A stretch of DNA of 64,000 bases, taken from positions 18,290,001 through 18,354,000 of the forward strand of contig OZ059897.1 in the NCBI GenBank assembly GCA_964057225.1, written 5' to 3'. Of this stretch, positions 3,001-64,000 are shown piece by piece (position 1 is the first letter of the stretch; each line of letters begins with the position of its first letter). The notes under the pieces are model-generated. The model was given only the letters and a program-made list of their open reading frames with translations. It was not told the DNA's origin and searched no databases. The translations under genes and the position numbers were made by a program. Source of the DNA: Auanema rhodensis. Its lineage: Eukaryota > Animalia > Nematoda.

Positions 3001-6000
3001 ATGATCGTTTGAAAAATGATGCATTAGTGTATGTTGAGTTTCCATGTACACTCAACATTGCTTCCAAAAACATTTTGACAAAAATTTTTTCGAAAAATTT
3101 CGAAATAATTTAGCAAAAAGTAGATGTTTTTAGATTCCATTTTTCAAGGCAAAGACGATAGACAATGTTATTCAACGAAAAAATTAATTCTTCAGGGTGA
3201 AAATCGAGGATATAAGTGTGAACTTATATCAGTTGATATCTCGGTGCATTTTTAAGCTAGCGCAAATCTGATAACACAGATCGACGCAGCTTAAGAATCC
3301 GCATCGAATGCACTATACTACATTGAGAAACGCTTAATACAAAAATTAGTTATGATCGTTTGAAAAATGATGCATTAGTGTATGTTGAGTTTCCATGTAC
3401 ACTCAACATTGCTTCCAAAAACATTTTGACAAAAATTTTTTCGAAAAATTTCAAAATAATTTAGCAAAAAGTAGATGTTTTTAGATTCCATTTTTCAAGG
3501 CAAAGACGATAGACAATGTTATTCAACGAAAAAATTAATTCTTCAGGGTGAAAATCGAGGATATAAGTGTGAACTTATATCAGTTGATATCTCGGTGCAT
3601 TTTTAAGCTAGCGCAAATCTGATAACACAGATCGACGCAGCTTAAGAATCCGCATCGAATGCACTATACTACATTGAGAAACGCTTATTACAAAAATTAG
3701 TTATGATCGTTTGAAAAATGATGCATTAGTGTATGTTGAGTTTCCATGTACACTTAACATTGCTTCCAAAAACATTTTGACAAAAATTTTTTCGAAAAAT
3801 TTCAAAATAGTTTACCAAAAAGTAGATGTTTTTAGATTCCATTTTTCAAGGCAAAGACGATGGACAATGTTATTCAACGAAAAAATTAATTCTTCAGGGT
3901 GAAAATCGAGGATATAAGTGTGAACTTATATCAGTTGATATCTCGGTGCATTTTTAAGCTAGCGCAAATCTGATAACACAGATCGACGCAGCTTAAAAAT
4001 CCGCATCGAATGCACTATACTACATCGAGAAACGCTCAATACAAAAATTAGTTATAATCGTTTGAAAAATGATGCATTAGTGTATGTTGAGTTTCCATGT
4101 ACACTCAACATTGCTTCCAAAAACATTTTGACAAAAATTTTTTCGAAAAATTTCAAAATAATTTAGCAAAAAGTAGATGTTTTTAGATTCCATTTTTCAA
4201 GGCAAAGACGATGGACAATGTTATTCAACGAAAAAATTAATTCTTCAGGGTGAAAATCGAGGATATAAGTGTGAACTTATATCAGTTGATATCTCGGTGC
4301 ATTTTTAAGCTAGCGCAAATCTGATAACACAGATCGACGCAGCTTAAAAATCCGCATCGAATGCACTATACTACATCGAGAAACGCTCAATACAAAAATT
4401 AGTTATAATCGTTTGAAAAATGATGCATTAGTGTATGTTGAGTTTCCATGTACACTCAACATTGCTTCCAAAACCATTTTGACAAAAATTTTTTCGAAAA
4501 ATTTCAAAATAATTTAGCAAAAAGTAGATGTTTTTAGATTCCATTTTTCAAGGCACAGACGATGGACAATGTTATTCAACGAAAAAATTAATTCTTCAGG
4601 GTGAAAATCGAAGATATAAGTGTGAACTTATATCAGTTGATATCTCGGTGCATTTTCGAGCTAGCGCAAATCTGATAACACAGATCGACGCAGCTTAAAA
4701 ATCCGCATCGAATGCACTATACTACATTGAGAAACGCTTAATACAAAAATTAGTTATAATCGTTTGAAAAATGATGCATTAGTGTATGTTGAGTTTCCAT
4801 GTACACTCAACATTGCTTCCAAAAACATTTTGACAAAAATTTTTTCGAAAAATTTCAAAATAATTTAGCAAAAAGTAGATGTTTTTAGATTCCATTTTTC
4901 AAGGCAAAGACGATGGACAATGTTATTCAACGAAAAAATTAATTCTTCAGGGTGAAAATCGAGGATATAAGTGTGAACTTATATCAGTTGATATCTCGGT
5001 GCATTTTTAAGCTAGCGCAAATCTGATAACACAGATCGACGCAGCTTAAAAATCCGGATCGAATGCACTATACTACATTGAGAAACGCTTAATACAAAAA
5101 TTAGTTATGATCGTTTGAAAAATGATGCATTAGTGTATGTTGAGTTTCCATGTACACTCAACATTGCTTCCAAAAACATTTTGACAAAAATTTTTTCGAA
5201 AAATTTCAAAATAATTTAGCAAAAAGTAGATGTTTTTAGATTCCATTTTTCAAGGCAAAGACGATGGACAATGTTATTCAACGAAAAAATTAATTCTTCA
5301 GGGTGAAAATTGAGGATATAAGTGTGAACTTATATCAGTTGATATCTCGGTGCATTTTTAAGCTAGCGCAAATCTGATAACACAGATCGACGCAGCTTAA
5401 AAATCCGCATCGAATGCACTATACTACATTGAGAAACATTTGATACAAAAATTAGTTATGATCGTTTGAAAAATGATGCATTAGTGTATGTTGAGTTTCC
5501 ATGTACACTCAACATTGCTTCCAAAAACATTTTGACAAAAATTTTTTCGAAAAATTTCGAAATAATTTAGCAAAAAGTAGATGTTTTTAGATTTCATTTT
5601 TCAAGGCAAAGACGATGGACAATGTTATTCAACGAAAAAATTAATTCTTCAGGGTGAAAATCGAGGATATAAGTGTGAACTTATATCAGTTGATATCTCG
5701 GTGCATTTTTAAGCTAGCGCAAATCTGATAACACAGATCGACGCAGCTTAAAAATCCGCATCGAATGCACTATACTACATTGAGAAACGCTTAATACAAA
5801 AATTAGTTATGATCGTTTGAAAAATGATGCATTAGTGTATGTTGAGTTTCCATGTACACTCAATATTGCTTCCAAAAACATTTTGACAAAAATGTTTTCG
5901 GAAAATTTCAAAATAATTTAGCAAAAAGTAGATGTTTTTAGATTTCTTTTTTCAAGGCAAAGACGATGGACAATGTTATTCAACGAAAAAATCATTTCTT

Positions 6001-54056: not shown

Positions 54057-54080
54057 CGTTCCATTCGGAGACTCTATATA

Positions 54081-54741
54081 TGTAACTGCAGGGTTAGAGC
54101 CAGACCGACTAGAGGAATGAGGAATGGCACCGCCTTCCCTCATGCCCCTATTCGGGAGTTCGCCCCTTTGCAAGCCCATGGACGGTTTGCATCTAACTTA
54201 GTTAATCTTATATATTAGTCTTTGTCTTGTAAATGTAGTTTACTTTATCCTTGTGTTAATGTATTGTAATGATATTGTATTGTGTATAATAAACCTATAT
54301 ATTTCCTTATCTTATGTAATCCTTATGCTCTGTTTCCATACCGCTACACTTATGGAATACTATACGCGTAGTTGAGCAGACTACAATGGTCTGTTCAATA
54401 TACGTAGGAGCATAATGGAACGTGGAGGTTCCACCTCGAACTCATTTTTGTCGCAAAAACTCGCATAAAAAGTCCATATTTTGATATCTAAATTAAAACT
54501 TCCTCCACGGTTAGCAACATAATGAGGGCGCCAACTTGTATAAGGTGCAGGTACAAGGGATCTCTCTTTTAGAGAGCTAGGACTACATAATTTTGAAATT
54601 TCACCCGCTGTCCCCACTCATAAAACCGTCTGAGTGTCCACCCTTATAATACCGTATCCTGCACCGCTTCTCTTGCATTTTTTTTTGAGGACGTTTGGAT
54701 CGAAATAGGGGACAATTTCACCAAACGAAATTTTGATTACA
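54081..54741 (+). repeat. 5' LTR (661 bp by TGTAA...TTACA termini; shared sequence actually starts at 54057)
   Basis: Starts TGTAAC and ends ATTACA (5-bp terminal inverted repeat). AATAAA at 54288-54293. No difference seen by eye from 63094-63754. Exact termini uncertain (see findings). Confidence 0.75.
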
Positions 54742-55405: not shown

Positions 55406-55774
55406 TTAAAAGCCCCATTTAAAATGCAACTGTCTCACAAATTCTATAGGCTGTGAGATGGGCTCATCGCTAGGCTCTAAATACTGCGAATACACCGAAT
55501 CCGCAGAGGTCCTTAGCAATAAGCCCATAGGAGACTGTTCATAAAATAAATAAATTTTAAACAAAATTTTAGACATATAATCATAAAAATCATGAGACTT
55601 ATGCTCATACCAATTCCAAGGGGATGCGACCAGATTTGGGTTTTCATACCAATGCGCGCACAAGTCGGTGAGGCACCATCGCCGGATAGCTGCAACCTCA
55701 TCCGCTATTTCCTGCATTAGGGAGAAGTTTACTAATCCCCTTCCCAGATAATGCATCTTTAAATCCTCAATAAA
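55406..55774 (-). CDS. Antisense accessory gene, exon 2 (FIEDLKMHYLGRG...HFKWGF*); unknown function
   Basis: The 116-aa ORF in the track extends 6 codons upstream to an AATTTTTAG acceptor (AG at 55776-55775) in phase 0. Protein-like composition. Confidence 0.7.
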   Translation of the reverse strand, partial: FIEDLKMHYLGRGLVNFSLMQEIADEVAAIRRWCLTDLCAHWYENPNLVASPWNWYEHKSHDFYDYMSKILFKIYLFYEQSPMGLLLRTSADSVYSQYLEPSDEPISQPIEFVRQLHFKWGF

Positions 55775-55819
55775 CTAAAAATTCTTATTAAGATAACATG
55801 TTTCTTTGTTTTAACCAAC

Positions 55820-55939
55820 CATCTTAATTATGTCTGGGTGCGGCCTATAAGCTAACACTTCGTCTTGATCATACAAGACGAGGTCAGCGTACAGCTTCCT
55901 CAAGACAAAAGTCATTCCCGATAGACCTTCATAAGCCAT
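55820..55939 (-). CDS. Antisense accessory gene, exon 1 (MAYEGLSGMTFVLRKLYADLVLYDQDEVLAYRPHPDIIKM)
   Basis: ATG in an A-rich context (AAATCAAAGA ATG G), 40 open codons ending ATG|GTTGGT. The 45-nt intron 55819-55775 joins it in frame to exon 2, giving 162 aa. Confidence 0.65.
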
Positions 55940-56352
55940 TCTTTGATTTATTTTTTTTTTTCAGCTCTACAAATATAAAGATTCTTATGCATAAAAAGGG
56001 GACATAAAACGACTGAAAATCTCTCTCATACTTTCAAGAATTCAATTAGAGTAAAGTATTAAGATTGAGGCTAGAAAGAGCGAAGACCAAAAAAAATTTA
56101 TAATTGATGAACATCTGTGAAATAGAATAAAGAAAAGAGAATACGGTAGATAGGCGGAGCCAGATCTCAGGCCAAGATTTTAAAACTCTTTCTCATCTAA
56201 TAACGATTCTCGGCGAAAGACGCCACGTCTCAATCTTCAAACGTTTCTTACTTTTCCTATAACCGACCCGAATTTCTTGTCACTCATTCAACGTCAACAT
56301 CCCCCATATAACGAAACACTCGCGGTTTTTCCGAACCAAGAGTGATTCCAAA

Positions 56353-59300
56353 GTGGCACGAAGATACTCTTCGGCCGTCCCTGCTCTATACCCTTCTGAG
56401 TCCAGTGACGACATCGCAGTCGCCAGTCGAACCAGAAGCCGCACTCGACTCCTCAGTGTTCAGATTGAAGAGCCTGAACAAGAGGTAAAACCCAAAGTCG
56501 AGAAAACCTTCATTCCTCGAGAAGGCACGTATTCACCTCCGGACAACACCGAGGAGGACCCTGATTTCTATATTCAGGACTACAATATTCAAACTTCAGC
56601 TTCAACTCCAAAGATAATACCGCTTATAAAGGCCAGACGAGCTGTCAACCCTTCATATTCAATTATTGACTGGGTTTCAGCACATCCCGAGAAGTTTTAT
56701 TTCTTCTTAAGAAGTCCCGTATCTGATAAATCCATACAACGTTTCCTTCAAACATACGAAATACACGACCCTGAGGAAGCAATACTTTATTTTCTTGCGC
56801 AAAAGGAACTGGCAGCAACCACTCGCGGCGCTATACGGTATTTAACCTCACAACAATTATTAGAACAGATAGGTGACAGATTAACAGCACACGAATTTGA
56901 CGAAAAACTGCTAGAAAAAGACGGATCCTACCGTGAAAGAGCCGAAAGCATAGCGATGGAGTTAGCTTATACACCGGTAATATTTGAAAACAATCTGTCG
57001 GTACCATCAAGGCAAGAGGTTTTAAAATCCTTTGTGAACATGCCGCCGATCCGACCAACTCTAACAACTGACAATGCTGATGAGCGTATAGTACTTAGAA
57101 ACACTCTTTACTTATACCATAACTTGATGACATTGCGAGTAATAAGGCCAAATAAAACAGCAGCAGCCGTAGATGATGAAAAGTTCCGACAATTAACAAT
57201 CAATGTGCCAGATACCAACAAATTATATCGAGATAAAGATTCTAACTACGGTATATCGATAGGGCCCCACCCTCGCATTCAAAACCCAAGCGCAGATACA
57301 CGCCAGCTACTTATAAAAACATTTTTACCACTGTTAGAGGATATTGAAACACCGCCTTATCTGACTAGAAGACTGTCATTAACGACAACAACGGACAAAC
57401 CCGCTTCACTAGTTCAGGAGACAACTAAAAGCCATACGACTCGGATTCCGACGACAACCACAGTTGAGACGACAACAGCCGCGATAACTACGACTCTCTC
57501 GCCAACAACATTAGCAACAGTCACTGACACGGCGTCACGAATCTTAAGGAAACAAAGAACATCATCTCCACCCGTAGAAACCAGAGAAATTCAGGCTCAG
57601 GCAACGTATACAGCGTCAAAAGTGAACAACGAAATACAATTCAACCTCAACGTATCTCGCAGAATAGCTCAAGATCATCTACAATATACAACAACACTCA
57701 TACAAGAAGAGCTACAGAAACATTTCATGGAATCTTATGAATCCATATGTGAGATTCAAAATAGATACCTCGAGCTATGGCGTTCTATTTTACACATAGA
57801 ACCTACAATAGCAATGAGGACTATTTTAGGAAGAGAGGATATTGCAGCCCGTTTCGTAGGCAGCGATATAGTTCATGTTCATATATGCCTACCTCTTCAA
57901 CCTAAAGCTGTTTATCATAATCATAAGATCAATGATACATGCTATTTGGAAACACCAGTAATAACAGAAGATGAGAGATTATATTTTGCTGCTCCAGGAT
58001 CAAGAGACTTATTAACACATGGAAAAGAGATAGATTGCGAACATGTACCCACAGATGTATACTATCAAAATGGAGAATGGATAAATATAAATGGATCGGT
58101 TGAAGTAAAACCAATATCACTCTTTGATAAAGCGCAATACCACCAATTAACACCTTTAAAGTTCACAGGCGCTAACTTATACACCAATTTATCATTGAGA
58201 GTTTACTCAATGTCAACAGCTATTGCATATGGAGCAAGTTTAGCATCCATACGACAGAACCATGTTTTACATACTATTCACAACGATCCAAAAATTACGT
58301 CCGCCTTTAATCTTTTGAAAAAGGGCAGTGACTATATCTCTAAAGCAGCTGAGTTCACAACTTCCGCCTGGACTAGCGTAAAGCAATTTCTAATAGGATC
58401 AATTGAGAGAACACTCATCTTCATAGGATCAATGGTTACGATTGCCGCAGTATTAATAATTCTTTTCGTTGTTGCTAAATTTTGGTTCTTCAGAGCCACT
58501 CCACTAACCGTAATGCATGTCCACGAAATAGATAATGAGCCCCCAAGCTATGAAGAAACATTGGAACTTGTAAGCCGCCCAGACCAACAGATGCCAGATA
58601 ACATCATGAAGCAATACTATCCTGCTTTAGTAACATTTATTCCAATCGCAATACCATTTGTTGCTTCTATTGTATCAGCGGAAACAAAGTTACCATTAAT
58701 ATATATATCAGTTGAAGATAAACTGATTTTAGCTTTATGGGATTCAGGCTCATCAGTGTCATATGTTAGGCTCTCCACCCTCAAATATCTGAACATGGCC
58801 GAAAATGTCAAGAAGAGACATTTAGTAGCGATGGCAGCCAACAAGTCCACTTTCACATTTTATGGAAAGATAAATCTTGTAATTGAAATTGCCGGTTACG
58901 AGATCGAACACACCTTTTTGGTCTCAAACGATCATGACTGTCCTGCTCCCGCTTTAATTGGACTAGATTTCATGAAAGCGCTTGACAGCGAAAACATCGA
59001 CGTCAGCCTTAAACCATCCAAGAAGAGGTTGGAGATTGGAAACAATGCCATCCCATTAATAGGAAACGAATCTATTAAGCATACGGAGATAACTGTGAAT
59101 ATCATTAATTTAAGAACAAAAACATTAAAGCCTGATGAAGAGGCACCTATCCCAATAAAGACAGATAAACCACTAGAATCTAACGAAGTGGTTGTCTTAG
59201 GGGATAGTGGAAGCGCATTAAAATCATTATATCCAACTGCGTTTCGTGATACCAGTGGAGTATATGTTATGTTCCGTAACAATACCGATGAAACAATAGC

Positions 59301-62300
59301 TATGGAAGCTAATTCAGTCATCGGACAGGCAATAATTGGAGAAATTCCGGCTTGTGAACCCTTTAAGCATAAGCCAATTCTACCATATGTTCCGCCAGAG
59401 GCCGATTGGGAGAGTAAACTACCATATTTTCCAAGAGACTTCATAAAAGATCTTGATCTAGAGAATGCTGATCTCACGAAAGAAGAAAAACATGAGCTTA
59501 CAAAAATAATTGAAAGCCATCGTGAGGCATTTCTTAACGAGGACAGGAAAATAGGCTTATTTAAAGGTCCTATAGAGCATACCATACCATTGAGAACAGA
59601 TATGGATATGCCAAAGCCGAGAATAACACGTATTCCCTTAGGAAAACAGGAAGAAATTGAAAAACAAGTCAAAGAAATGCTTGAGCAAGGCATAATAGAG
59701 CCTTCTACATCTCTATTTAATAGCCCTGTAGTACTAGTTAAGAAGAAAGATGACACGTATAGGTTTGTGACAGATTTTCGAGCTTTAAATAATGTCACAC
59801 GCAAGCAAACTTATGTCATTCCAAGCATTTCTGACATAGTTGATTTGGCAGCAGGCGCCCAATTTTTCTCAAACTTCGATTTAGTGTCAGGATTTTTTCA
59901 AATATCCTTGAGAAAATCAGATCGACCACTAACAGCATTTACGACCACATCCGGCACATACCAGTACAAACGGATGCCGATGGGCCTTTGTGGAGCCCCT
60001 CATACCTTTCAAACAGCAGTAAGGTATTTGCAAAGTAAATGTTCTTGTAAACTATTTGTTTATTTGGACGATCTATTAGTTATATCTGATACAAGAGAAC
60101 AACATCTCAAAGATATCGATGATTTACTGCAAGCAGTAGAAGAATTGGGAATGAAGATAAAGCTTAAGAAATGCGCTTTTGCTCAACCAGAAGTGAAATT
60201 TCTAGGACTTATTGTAGGACGTCAAGGTATAAAACCTGACCCTCAAAAAGTCGCCGCCATACAAGATTATCCGGCACCAAAGAATGCAACAGGTGTACGA
60301 GCATTCTTGGGAATGGTTGGATTCTTTCGCAAATTCATGAAAGATTTTGCACGTATCGCAAGCCCTTTATACGATCTGACAAAGGCAGATACTGAATTCA
60401 AATGGGAAAACAAACATCAAGAAGCTTTAGACCTCCTTAAAAGAAGTTTAATACAGGCACCCGTTTTAAGCCCACCTAAATCGGACCGCTTGTTTATAGT
60501 TGAAAGCGACGGTAGTAACATCGCCATAGGTGCTGTATTATTACAACCGGAAGATCCAAAACAACCTCTGAAAAATCTACACCCTATCGCATTTGCAAGC
60601 AGAAAACTAGTTAAAGCCGAACGTAACTACGCACCAATCGAGATAGAAGCATTAGGCCTTGTATATGCATTAAATCAATTCCGTACATACATTCTTGGAA
60701 CTCATACTATATGTATTACGGACCATCGACCTCTTACCAGCTTAATGACACGCAGAGACTTATTTGGTCGTCTTGCGAAGTTCCAGCTGGTCATCCAAGA
60801 ATATGATATTGAAATAAAATATCGCGCAGGCCAATTAAATAAAGTATGCGATGCTCTATCTCGATATATAGGTGAAGAAGCTAACGATGCTAAGCCGGAA
60901 ACAAAGAAGAAGAAAATGGAAGAAATTCACATTAACGCCATAAATACACCAACAATAAAGGAAATTCAACTAAGCACCCCTTGGATTAAACGGACGATAG
61001 CGGAGATTGAATATAGAGCACAAAAGAACATGACAGCTAATGACAGATATTGTGTCATAAATGACTTGCTCTATACAAAACCAACAGACAAAAAGCCACA
61101 ACCCGCTATCGTAATACCACAAGAACACCCCATAATTGAGGAAATAATCAAAGTTTTTCATGAGGATCCTACAATTGCAGCACATCAAGGAATTATTAAA
61201 ACAAAAGAAGCAATTCTAAGAAGATTCTATTGGACAAATATGCAGAACGACATTACTATATTCATCAAGAACTGCATTAAATGTGCTCAAAGAAAAAAAG
61301 ATCCACATTCCATGACGGTACAACCAATAGGTCATTTTGAGATACCAAGCAAGCCATTTGAACGAGTCCACATGGACGTAATGGGACCATTTCCCCCTTC
61401 AAAAAGAAACTGTACCTACGTCATTACCATGCAAGACGCATTTACAAAATGGTCAACAACAATTGCTGTACCACAAATAACAACGGAAATCACAATTGAT
61501 CGATTTCTAAGACATTTCGTTTACATTTTTGGACCACCCCATCGCTTGATCACCGATAGAGGTTCAAACTTTGTATCTAAAAAGTTCGAAGAAATGTGTA
61601 CTAAACTTGGAATCAAACATGAACCAACACTACCACACCAAAAGAACTCAAATGGACAAGTGGAAAGACTTCACCGAACCCTCGAAGAAGGATTAACCCA
61701 CTACTTAAAAGAGGACCTTAGTGACTGGGATACTGTATTACCAAAAATCACTTTTGCTATTAACAATATTCAGCACGCGACTACAGGGATTGCGCCATAC
61801 ATTGCATTATTCGGTAAAGAATGCAGAATGTCAATGGACGCTGAATTACCAGAAACGATCACCAAAATTCAAGAAATTTCTGAAGAATTACTCCAAAGAA
61901 GACCAGATATGGACAAGAGAGACGAAATAATAAAGAACCGCATAGCTAAAAATCAAGAAAATGCGAAAAAGAAGAAAGATAGAACGCAAAGAGCACACCA
62001 TAGAGACATTCAACCGGGCGACATGGTGATGACGACTATAAAATCACACCAAATCGGCCAAAAGCTTCGGAAAAGCTATGATGGACCATGCGAAGTCATC
62101 AACGTAGAAGGATCAAAAGTTCAAATCAGAAATTCATCAGGAAAACTACAAGATATCCACAAAGATAACTTGAAAATCTTCTCTCCTGCTTCACAAAACA
62201 TCTCTTACAACACTCGCGCAAGGTTTCGAGAAAGTCAAGCAGAAGAAGATAGCGACATCGAAATAATAGAAGTGATCAACAGGAACAACAAGGATAGCAT

Positions 62301-62364
62301 AGATACAGAGCCAGAAGATGAAAATGAAGACGAAATATGGCTTCCGAGGAATGAAGAAGAATAA
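56353..62364 (+). CDS. pol: Retroelement polyprotein: unknown N-terminal domain + gB-like envelope half + protease + RT + RNase H + integrase
   Basis: Uninterrupted frame (open from 56263). The track start is GTG and the first in-frame ATG is at 56956, so the true start is uncertain. Catalytic motifs are intact. Confidence 0.93.
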   Translation: MARRYSSAVPALYPSESSDDIAVASRTRSRTRLLSVQIEEPEQEVKPKVEKTFIPREGTYSPPDNTEEDPDFYIQDYNIQTSASTPKIIPLIKARRAVNPSYSIIDWVSAHPEKFYFFLRSPVSDKSIQRFLQTYEIHDPEEAILYFLAQKELAATTRGAIRYLTSQQLLEQIGDRLTAHEFDEKLLEKDGSYRERAESIAMELAYTPVIFENNLSVPSRQEVLKSFVNMPPIRPTLTTDNADERIVLRNTLYLYHNLMTLRVIRPNKTAAAVDDEKFRQLTINVPDTNKLYRDKDSNYGISIGPHPRIQNPSADTRQLLIKTFLPLLEDIETPPYLTRRLSLTTTTDKPASLVQETTKSHTTRIPTTTTVETTTAAITTTLSPTTLATVTDTASRILRKQRTSSPPVETREIQAQATYTASKVNNEIQFNLNVSRRIAQDHLQYTTTLIQEELQKHFMESYESICEIQNRYLELWRSILHIEPTIAMRTILGREDIAARFVGSDIVHVHICLPLQPKAVYHNHKINDTCYLETPVITEDERLYFAAPGSRDLLTHGKEIDCEHVPTDVYYQNGEWININGSVEVKPISLFDKAQYHQLTPLKFTGANLYTNLSLRVYSMSTAIAYGASLASIRQNHVLHTIHNDPKITSAFNLLKKGSDYISKAAEFTTSAWTSVKQFLIGSIERTLIFIGSMVTIAAVLIILFVVAKFWFFRATPLTVMHVHEIDNEPPSYEETLELVSRPDQQMPDNIMKQYYPALVTFIPIAIPFVASIVSAETKLPLIYISVEDKLILALWDSGSSVSYVRLSTLKYLNMAENVKKRHLVAMAANKSTFTFYGKINLVIEIAGYEIEHTFLVSNDHDCPAPALIGLDFMKALDSENIDVSLKPSKKRLEIGNNAIPLIGNESIKHTEITVNIINLRTKTLKPDEEAPIPIKTDKPLESNEVVVLGDSGSALKSLYPTAFRDTSGVYVMFRNNTDETIAMEANSVIGQAIIGEIPACEPFKHKPILPYVPPEADWESKLPYFPRDFIKDLDLENADLTKEEKHELTKIIESHREAFLNEDRKIGLFKGPIEHTIPLRTDMDMPKPRITRIPLGKQEEIEKQVKEMLEQGIIEPSTSLFNSPVVLVKKKDDTYRFVTDFRALNNVTRKQTYVIPSISDIVDLAAGAQFFSNFDLVSGFFQISLRKSDRPLTAFTTTSGTYQYKRMPMGLCGAPHTFQTAVRYLQSKCSCKLFVYLDDLLVISDTREQHLKDIDDLLQAVEELGMKIKLKKCAFAQPEVKFLGLIVGRQGIKPDPQKVAAIQDYPAPKNATGVRAFLGMVGFFRKFMKDFARIASPLYDLTKADTEFKWENKHQEALDLLKRSLIQAPVLSPPKSDRLFIVESDGSNIAIGAVLLQPEDPKQPLKNLHPIAFASRKLVKAERNYAPIEIEALGLVYALNQFRTYILGTHTICITDHRPLTSLMTRRDLFGRLAKFQLVIQEYDIEIKYRAGQLNKVCDALSRYIGEEANDAKPETKKKKMEEIHINAINTPTIKEIQLSTPWIKRTIAEIEYRAQKNMTANDRYCVINDLLYTKPTDKKPQPAIVIPQEHPIIEEIIKVFHEDPTIAAHQGIIKTKEAILRRFYWTNMQNDITIFIKNCIKCAQRKKDPHSMTVQPIGHFEIPSKPFERVHMDVMGPFPPSKRNCTYVITMQDAFTKWSTTIAVPQITTEITIDRFLRHFVYIFGPPHRLITDRGSNFVSKKFEEMCTKLGIKHEPTLPHQKNSNGQVERLHRTLEEGLTHYLKEDLSDWDTVLPKITFAINNIQHATTGIAPYIALFGKECRMSMDAELPETITKIQEISEELLQRRPDMDKRDEIIKNRIAKNQENAKKKKDRTQRAHHRDIQPGDMVMTTIKSHQIGQKLRKSYDGPCEVINVEGSKVQIRNSSGKLQDIHKDNLKIFSPASQNISYNTRARFRESQAEEDSDIEIIEVINRNNKDSIDTEPEDENEDEIWLPRNEEE
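57559..58491 (+). other. env: Envelope-like domain: herpesvirus gB / class III fusogen C-terminal half with TM anchor
   Basis: ICEIQNRYLELWRSILHIEPTIAMRTILGREDIAARFVGSDIVHVHIC...DTCYLETPV parallels HSV gB WCELQNHELTLW...LNP...GRRVSARMLGDVMAVSTC...CYSRPLV. N-glycosylation sequons NVS, NDT, NGS, NLS. Hydrophobic helix at 58411-58491. Confidence 0.8.
58690..59060 (+). other. Retropepsin aspartic protease domain
   Basis: ALWDSGSSVSYV (Asp codon at 58741) and downstream ALIGLDFM. Boundaries approximate. Confidence 0.92.
59620..60220 (+). other. Reverse transcriptase domain
   Basis: SPVVLVKKKDDTYRFVTDFRALN, FDLVSGFFQI, MPMGLCGAP, YLDD at 60061-60072. Boundaries approximate. Confidence 0.97.
60490..60870 (+). 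other. RNase H domain
   Basis: ESDGSNIAIGAVL, IAFASRKL, ERNYAPIEIEAL, TDHRPL, NKVCDALSR. Confidence 0.95.
61050..62180 (+). other. Integrase (HHCC zinc finger, DDE core, GPY/F-like module; no chromodomain, acidic tail)
   Basis: FHEDPTIAAHQG...CIKC; HMDVMGP, TDRGSNF, VERLHRTL; YDGPCEV. Confidence 0.95.
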
Positions 62365-63058
62365 CAACAAGATAATGCTACGTTATTTAAATTATTGTAA
62401 CAAAATAACGATGAATTAAAAAAAAAAAAAAAAAATTAATGCTAAATAACATTCAAAATAAAAATAGCATTTAATAGAGATTGAGAAAGGAAAAATAAGG
62501 CAAATTCTAAACGAGGAGATGTTATGACTAATGGTTCCAAGTTACCGTAATCCTATGCGGACTAGAGGACATTTTGACAACCATCCGAGCTCCATGTGCC
62601 TCTCCAAATAAGATGAGATGAACACTGGTAGGCGTATCAACCACAATTTCATCTTAAGTGGTAGTCTCCATTAGTAATCAAGGATTCACTCTGGGAGACA
62701 TATGGAGACACATTATTAAATCATAATCTCGGTTCAATTTAGAAATGAGTACTTCTTGAGACCATTAGTCAAAATAATAACATATTCCCATTCATTACTA
62801 GCCCCTTTATTCTACAATCTCTATTAGGAAATGCTTGAATATTAAGATAATTAATTTATGAAATTAATAATATTCTAATTCATCGTCCCTTCATATTATA
62901 TTGAACCCTTCTTATAAATTATTGTAATTTTGTTTGTATACTAACTAAAACTCTATCATACTATAGTTATTGTGAAGCTAAAACAATTGAACTCTAAAAC
63001 TCAGTTACATATAAGCCCAAATTTTTGTTTAAAATATCGCGAGGTCGCGACAATCTTT

Positions 63059-63067
63059 GAAAAAGGG
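63059..63067 (+). promoter_or_regulatory. Polypurine tract
   Basis: GAAAAAGGG ends 2 nt before the start of the duplicated sequence (63070) and 26 nt before TGTAAC. Confidence 0.55.
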
Positions 63068-63093
63068 CACGTTCCATTCGGAGACTCTATATA

Positions 63094-63754
63094 TGTAACT
63101 GCAGGGTTAGAGCCAGACCGACTAGAGGAATGAGGAATGGCACCGCCTTCCCTCATGCCCCTATTCGGGAGTTCGCCCCTTTGCAAGCCCATGGACGGTT
63201 TGCATCTAACTTAGTTAATCTTATATATTAGTCTTTGTCTTGTAAATGTAGTTTACTTTATCCTTGTGTTAATGTATTGTAATGATATTGTATTGTGTAT
63301 AATAAACCTATATATTTCCTTATCTTATGTAATCCTTATGCTCTGTTTCCATACCGCTACACTTATGGAATACTATACGCGTAGTTGAGCAGACTACAAT
63401 GGTCTGTTCAATATACGTAGGAGCATAATGGAACGTGGAGGTTCCACCTCGAACTCATTTTTGTCGCAAAAACTCGCATAAAAAGTCCATATTTTGATAT
63501 CTAAATTAAAACTTCCTCCACGGTTAGCAACATAATGAGGGCGCCAACTTGTATAAGGTGCAGGTACAAGGGATCTCTCTTTTAGAGAGCTAGGACTACA
63601 TAATTTTGAAATTTCACCCGCTGTCCCCACTCATAAAACCGTCTGAGTGTCCACCCTTATAATACCGTATCCTGCACCGCTTCTCTTGCATTTTTTTTTG
63701 AGGACGTTTGGATCGAAATAGGGGACAATTTCACCAAACGAAATTTTGATTACA
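63094..63754 (+). repeat. Second LTR (shared between tandem units)
   Basis: Copy of 54081-54741 at offset 9013. The same 78-aa shadow ORF and the same 9-T run occur in both. Confidence 0.8.
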
Positions 63755-64000
63755 TTATTATTTGGCAACGAGGAGTTAGAATGAAATTTTGAAAGCGCAC
63801 AAAGTTTAATATTTTATTGTGGTCAGGACTAGAGATTTGAAAGTTAAATTCAGGCGTAAAAGAGCATGCTAACTAAATATTTTTGCGGGAGCCGTTATTC
63901 GGTTTTTATTTTTTTTTTGATTGTGAGAATAGACCACACTAGTCCGAAAAATCCTGGCACAAATTTTATTGCCTGTCAGGTCATTTTGGCGAAAGCACAT
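63755..64000 (+). mobile_element. Start of a second tandem unit (PBS at 63763-63774 + leader), truncated by the window end
   Basis: 63755-64000 repeats 54742-54987 instead of returning to satellite. Confidence 0.7.

Follow-up and report, generated by a model that had tools for sequence, protein, structure and literature searches.

The window analysed here, a stretch of 64,000 nucleotides from contig OZ059897.1 of the nematode Auanema rhodensis, contains an LTR element with identical LTRs and one long uninterrupted frame, in which Pol and half of a gB-type envelope can be recognised and Gag cannot. This raises the question of what occupies the place of Gag and of the missing envelope half. The original prediction placed there, at 56263-57378, a single orphan domain that replaces both Gag and the fusion-loop half of gB, and offered three options for its nature: a highly diverged Gag, a novel surface subunit, or an internally deleted element mobilised in trans. 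The last of these three is the one favoured by our analysis, since sister copies of the element are longer at 56613/56614.

The element adjoins the end of a homogeneous satellite array that makes up the first ~54 kb of the window (positions 1-54056; 351-bp unit, 154 copies, with 97-100% identity to the reference among the 30 copies listed). Both LTRs have CG...CG termini (6-bp inverted ends), not TG...CA, and one contig of sequencing run X1 departs from the window sequence past 54422. The 3' LTR, with the primer-binding site and leader repeated directly after it at 63436-64000, shows 0 mismatches in 931 compared bases, so that a second unit begins there in a head-to-tail tandem running off the window. 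The direct LTRs, primer-binding site and polypurine tract, together with the order protease, RT, RNase H and integrase, are those of Ty3/gypsy elements (Metaviridae). As expected of a gB-type errantivirus, and as in relatives that have Gag, the C-terminal half of gB and a transmembrane segment lie directly ahead of the protease. The match to PF24664 spans profile positions 315-448 of 653 and gB-type Pfam families are found only from aa 470 onward; the parts that would complete the ectodomain (signal peptide, domains I-II and fusion loops) are present in relatives and absent from the window copy. Pfam detected 0 Gag families in the window copy, which therefore does not have the capsid gene expected of an autonomous element. 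Two minor features lie in the same frame. The dUTPase-like Pfam match at 59122-59343 (aa 954-1027), between protease and RT, is weak (E 0.084). The other is a second hydrophobic segment at ~58624-58674 (aa ~788-804), between the envelope transmembrane segment and the protease, which is found in 6 of 10 proteins scanned and may be a membrane tether for Pol.

Features of the element, in window coordinates
Feature	Position	Strand	Remarks
5' LTR	54057..54422	+	366 bp; identical to 3' LTR; next to 351-bp satellite array
Primer-binding site, tRNA-Gln type	54423..54434	+	12-mer as in Clat_errantivirus_4 and Ctro_errantivirus_1 (PMC13524379, supplementary file 1)
Antisense two-exon ORF, 162 codons	55406..55939	-	exons 55939-55820 and 55774-55406; 45-nt phase-0 GT..AG intron 55819-55775
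Long open frame	56263-62364	+	2033 codons, single frame
Codons 1-117 of long frame	56263..56613	+	low-complexity, ATG-less
Junction	56612..56614	+	2,694 nt of sister copies absent; in frame; 2-nt AG fits both sides
Envelope linker module, aa 118-375	56614..57387	+	Cys-free; predicted mainly helical and well folded
Thr-rich mucin-like linker	57388..57624	+	ends near R-x-x-R motif (RKQR, aa 429-432)
C-terminal half of gB-type (class III) envelope ectodomain	57625..58401	+	PF24664, E 3.7e-15; PF00606, E 5.3e-9
Envelope transmembrane segment	58423..58482	+	hydrophobic stretch
Pol: protease, dUTPase-like (weak), RT, RNase H, integrase	58708..62364	+	Ty3/gypsy order; without stop or frameshift
Polypurine tract	63059..63067	+	from sequence
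3' LTR	63070..63435	+	followed by primer-binding site and leader, up to window end

Several characters of the N-terminal region were as originally described. The CCHC knuckle (C-x2-C-x3..5-H-x3..5-C) occurs nowhere in the whole frame 56263-62364, Pfam found 0 families in 56263-57378, and the peptides described as helical-looking, which lie at aa 157-207 counted from 56263, are helical in the confident structural model considered below. The claim that aa 1-465 contain no Cys holds if the count begins at the GTG at 56353, in which case the first Cys is aa 466; it fails from 56263, from which Cys residues are found at aa 6, 496, 542, 560, 592 and 893. This GTG lies in the context AAA-GTG-G, with no other letter there in the runs compared, and no in-frame ATG occurs for 231 codons (56263-56955). 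A non-AUG start of Gag is possible in the family of the window element, the relatives also being Met-poor ahead of the capsid. What was not borne out is the unity of the region, which is made of two pieces joined at 56613/56614.

Relatives were collected by a search with the Pol region, which yielded 24 among 5,400 candidates. In an RT-RNase H tree of 24 rows, from which the Auanema protein P0002 was left out for having no full RT, the window element is sister to Auanema P0003 (98/95) in a group of 12 rows, the remainder of which bear nematode names. We conclude that the element belongs to the Ty3/gypsy retrotransposons, with nematode GAG-ENV(gB)-POL elements as its closest relatives. Its nearest relatives, P0002 and P0003, are from Auanema sp. 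JU1783, and the gB C-half/protease region of P0002 is 49% identical to that of the window element. P0002 displays, in order, a Gag tail, an R/N-rich region without a knuckle, an internal signal peptide, a gB N-half with 10 Cys, the furin site RTKR, the stretch corresponding to the module, an S/T-rich linker, the gB C-half, a transmembrane segment and protease; the Gag tail, signal peptide, gB N-half and RTKR site are kept in P0002 but missing from the window copy. The Cys-rich gB N-half of a relative matches 11 of the 24 other proteins (11 besides P0002) and not the window frame, in agreement with the original statement that the disulfide-rich half of gB is absent. The Gag family PF03732 (Retrotrans_gag) was found in 4 of 5 relatives scanned. 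Of 25 proteins, a single one has a CCHC knuckle, and it belongs to a non-nematode outgroup; C-x2-C occurs upstream of env in 2 of 9 proteins inspected, neither of them a knuckle. Absence of the knuckle is a family trait and, because Gag-bearing relatives lack it too, it is uninformative about Gag.

We looked for other copies of the element in public sequencing runs, where it is present in 15 runs from 4 studies; contigs of 6 of these 15, again from 4 studies, were compared. Record 5 of run X1 lies on 55820-56613 (record 9958-9165) and on 56612-63081 (record 6472-1), and record 5 of run X2 on 55650-56613 (1258-2221) and on 56612-56846 (4914-5148). In both, the extra length between the two pieces is 2,694 nt (898 codons), so that the short copy remains in frame. 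Record 14 of run X3 extends 2,750 letters past 56613, and loose ends are seen at both sides of the junction in X8 and on the left in X12 and X13. The long form is thus supported in 6/6 runs, or in 5/5 from the same 4 studies if X1, a possible source of the window DNA, is omitted. Its LTR-to-LTR spacing is ~11.7 kb. The short junction was bridged by no contig among the pieces listed for the 6 runs, which, as contigs drop rare forms, is evidence neither way. Longer sibling copies, which the original prediction had itself named as counting against a replacement, therefore do exist.

The two pieces on either side of the junction have different affinities. Codons 1-117 gave no sequence match in the 24 relatives and 0 Pfam families. 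Met-poor, low-complexity stretches are similarly found in relatives ahead of PF03732, and from their position codons 1-117 are likely to be an N-terminal extension ahead of the Gag capsid. The second piece, aa 118-375, is 37% identical to aa 487-782 of Auanema P0002, past RTKR and the 10-Cys gB N-half. A profile search of 1.84 billion representatives returned 7 module hits. Two of them, P0029 and P0033, continue into the gB C-half (Pfam); in P0030 and P0033 the alignment shows R-x-K-R and sequence resembling the gB N-half ahead of the module; and 4 hits are fragments, 67-157 aa in length. Word-index protein searches found P0002 alone. Reciprocal profiles gave a weak link to the Caenorhabditis linkers of P0004, P0006 and P0013 (4-9 bits, with 0-1 of 300 shuffles as high), and the comparison with the linker of P0010 was not significant (19 of 300 shuffles as high). 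Among the 12 proteins with both gB halves, the stretch between the halves varies in length between about 50 and 459 aa, the proteins P0005, P0007, P0009 and P0012 having short ones. Mapped on the tree, the module label needs 3 changes, the starred branches being compatible with one origin. On these alignments, aa 118-375 is a conserved envelope module, located inside gB past the furin site in intact relatives.

Several other searches with the module gave null results or candidates that were rejected. Pfam assigned 0 families to aa 118-375; a weak match to Peptidase_A2B (E 0.11) in 1 of the 7 module rows was not accepted. A PDB sequence search with a 2-row profile matched HDA1 at E 0.01 over 33 residues, and 0 matches were left with the 7-row profile. 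A motif seen by eye in the linkers of P0016-P0019 was backed by profile only for P0016 (0 of 200 shuffles as high; 13-31 of 200 for the others). A metagenome scan gave 411 pattern matches, 0 of them confirmed, and the ESM Atlas gave no usable match for the window piece and none at >=0.9 for the P0002 module.

The context of the module in relatives bears directly on its proposed nature. In P0002 and P0006 it comes after a signal peptide and a furin site, which is not the position of a capsid (cytosolic, ahead of the nucleocapsid), and P0006 has its own Retrotrans_gag domain upstream in addition to the module and the gB N-half. The helical stretch thus lies within Env in relatives that also have the gB N-half, contrary to the reading as a diverged Gag, and it is added to a complete gB, so that nothing is replaced. 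The proposal of a novel surface subunit holds insofar as the module is part of an envelope ectodomain for which no family assignment was found; as a substitute for the fusion-loop half it does not hold. The 'orphan' protein is instead chimeric: aa 1-117 are a likely pre-capsid extension, and aa 118-375 are an envelope module whose first ~45 residues are lost in the window copy. Judging from the relatives, the missing piece likely comprises, on the Gag side, the capsid and a nucleocapsid region that is R/N/G/Q-rich and has no knuckle and, on the envelope side, the internal signal peptide, domains I-II of gB including the fusion loops, the furin site and the beginning of the module. The capsid and the fusion half would then be missing because of the deletion, and the knuckle because its absence is a family trait. 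The window copy is, with near certainty, derived from a known kind of element by a deletion that made it non-autonomous.

The structure of the module was modelled with AlphaFold2 from an alignment of 14 rows, giving a mostly helical prediction with a pLDDT of 84.5 and a pTM of 0.80. A whole-protein alignment misaligned the module and was not used for folding. With the confident model, Foldseek gave 0 of 235 PDB matches and 0 of 224 BFVD matches at E<=0.001, and VIA-align gave 0 of 48,161 chains at Z>=5, the best being a death domain at Z 4.6 (rmsd 4.4, 65 aligned); residues 193-258 were barely covered. No capsid appeared among the 50 VIA-align matches shown; a comparison with Ty3 and Arc capsid folds had been suggested with the original prediction. 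The fold searches name no fold for the modelled module, and the fold is not thereby shown to be new. A first model, built from 2 rows, had a pLDDT of 43.9 and was unusable, and we distrust its matches to death domains (Z 6.3 and 6.2) and to the Arc2 N-lobe (Z 4.5).

In herpesvirus gB, a cleavable linker ahead of the central helix occupies the position of the module. On the particles of intact relatives the module would face outward, with the furin site on one side of it and, on the other, a Thr-rich stalk leading into the gB central helix. It would most likely serve as an accessory domain for capping or attachment, which some lineages keep and others shorten or lose. The module may be released where a second R-x-x-R comes after it, as does RKQR in the window; P0014 also has two R-x-x-R-type sites, on either side of its linker. 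In the window copy the module is predicted to be a non-functional passenger, because this copy lacks a signal peptide and any in-frame ATG upstream of aa 232.

We next consider how the short copy arose. The two sides of the junction share only AG, and in 1 of the 3 registers this allows, the missing piece reads GT..AG. Of 400,000 simulated random deletions in the element, 0.31% were readable as GT..AG and 0.056% as GTR..YAG. The acceptor agrees with 5/6 positions of the nematode consensus, equalled by 5 of 522 AG sites in the element, and the donor with 3/5 positions, equalled by 32 of 243 GT sites; for both, the consensus is that of C. elegans, which may differ from the host's, and the scoring was devised after the ends had been seen. 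The normally strong positions missed are donor +4/+5 and acceptor -5, and since both sites miss a strong position they fit a cryptic, seldom used splice. That the join is in frame does not count as separate support, the finding having been selected for its single long ORF. From the ends of the missing piece we infer, at a probability of about 0.8, that the short copy derives from a reverse-transcribed spliced sense RNA. Such an RNA would have formed with primer-binding site, polypurine tract and LTRs intact, would have been packaged in trans by the Gag of long copies, and would then have been reverse-transcribed and inserted as the short copy. The tandem arrangement would also fit cDNA recombination as the route of entry. 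An intron on the minus strand of the leader is kept in the short copy, as expected of a sense RNA template.

The shared AG also fits template switching at a 2-nt microhomology, and the main competitor of a spliced origin is an ordinary internal deletion of this kind, by reverse transcriptase or by DNA repair, with GT..AG arising by chance. Internal deletions are commonplace, being the usual fate of LTR elements; a 2-nt microhomology is itself frequent (11.6% of the simulated deletions), and both splice sites are imperfect. GT..AG is, however, found in only 0.42% of simulated deletions with a 2-nt microhomology, and the acceptor is among the best 5 of 522 AG sites, which leaves ordinary deletion a minority explanation, roughly one of seven in our estimate. 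It would leave unchanged the chimera, the module and the dependence on helper Gag.

A short form produced by an assembly or consensus error in the source record of the window is much less probable still. The short junction is seen in the window only, and the tandem unit that holds it adjoins a satellite array, a setting prone to assembly errors; yet a mis-join has no cause to land on GT..AG in a splice-like context, and the rest of the unit is letter-identical to run contigs over long pieces (0 other letters and 2 gaps over 56612-63081 in X1 record 5). We give least credence of all to the original reading of an autonomous element in which a diverged Gag or a stand-alone surface subunit replaces Gag and the fusion-loop half. 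The open frame and the identical LTRs agree with it, as does the Drosophila Arc2 N-lobe at rank 17 (rmsd 3.4, 64 aligned) among matches of the low-confidence first model, but it is contradicted by sister copies with 2,694 nt more at the junction, and by two relatives: in P0002 the module is accompanied by the gB N-half, and in P0006 by Gag as well. A reverse-transcribed spliced RNA thus remains our preferred origin for the short copy.

The minus-strand intron kept in the window copy belongs to an antisense ORF of two exons in the leader. Contigs of runs X1, X12 and X13 skip the intron and those of X2, X3 and X8 keep it; the first three were classed as RNA-like solely by this skipped intron, with X1 also showing little satellite depth. 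Its absence from three RNA-like runs and presence in three DNA-like runs indicate that the ORF is likely transcribed and spliced, and it is a possible accessory gene. Pfam found 0 families in either exon, and a PDB sequence search with exon 2 gave one match, not significant at E 0.74.

The element can be placed among known systems. GAG-ENV-POL errantiviruses with an HSV/gB-type ENV have been described in nematodes (Chary and Hayashi 2026, PMC13524379; earlier Sacco et al. 2022, as cited there). These share with the window element an Env upstream of Pol, a gB-type ectodomain, a Ty3/gypsy Pol and the tRNA-Gln primer-binding 12-mer, and published nematode elements with spacings of, for example, 11.2, 11.0 and 10.2 kb fit the LTR-to-LTR spacing of the long form; the window copy differs from them by the 2,694 nt, likely Gag and the gB N-half. 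The sections of PMC13524379 consulted describe five gB domains and mention neither an extra module past the furin site nor splicing. In the literature searched, neither the module nor a spliced copy of an element of this kind is described, although Sacco 2022 or the figure supplements of PMC13524379 may show the module.

Spliced proviruses have precedents in Mtv with a rem-intron deletion and in spliced HERV-H, which are called rare in PMC11998498. Like the window copy, these have an in-frame internal deletion, ends that fit an intron, and normal LTRs. Their intron belongs to a known mRNA, whereas the splice in the window is deduced from sequence ends; moreover, the window element is an invertebrate Ty3/gypsy element, and the cut likely removes the capsid and half of the envelope. 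A parallel within nematodes is Cer1 of C. elegans, whose RNA is spliced at strong and weak sites (PMC3315495, PMC10309623). Cer1 is a nematode Ty3/gypsy element with a single Gag-Pol frame; usable splice sites persist in its genomic RNA, and in a spliced RNA the exons for the N-terminus of Gag are linked to a frame further downstream. It is unlike the window family in that its Gag has three CCHC fingers, it has no gB envelope, and its spliced product CERV is a functional export protein.

A broader reading in two parts can be envisaged, in which gB-type nematode errantiviruses would carry past the furin site, on a mucin-like stalk, a helical cap domain of new fold for attachment or shielding, swapped, shrunk or lost by lineage, and in which a regulated in-frame splice would skip the capsid and fusion loops to give a Pol-bearing RNA, the window copy being its fossil. 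We consider this combination unlikely.

These results remove an apparent 'Gag-less autonomous element', and are a warning that identical LTRs and a long open frame may also mark a deletion chimera. The GAG-ENV(gB)-POL layout was already known in nematodes (PMC13524379); what is added to it here is a probable origin by splicing, together with an envelope module that appears not to have been described. Retro-copies of spliced RNA, as the Ty3/gypsy copy of the window likely is, are called rare among ERVs (PMC11998498) and record which RNAs get packaged. The module is a conserved, confidently predicted extra domain inside a class III fusogen, and since the elements have no separate attachment protein beside these envelopes, this variable module is a candidate for how nematode errantiviruses choose cells.
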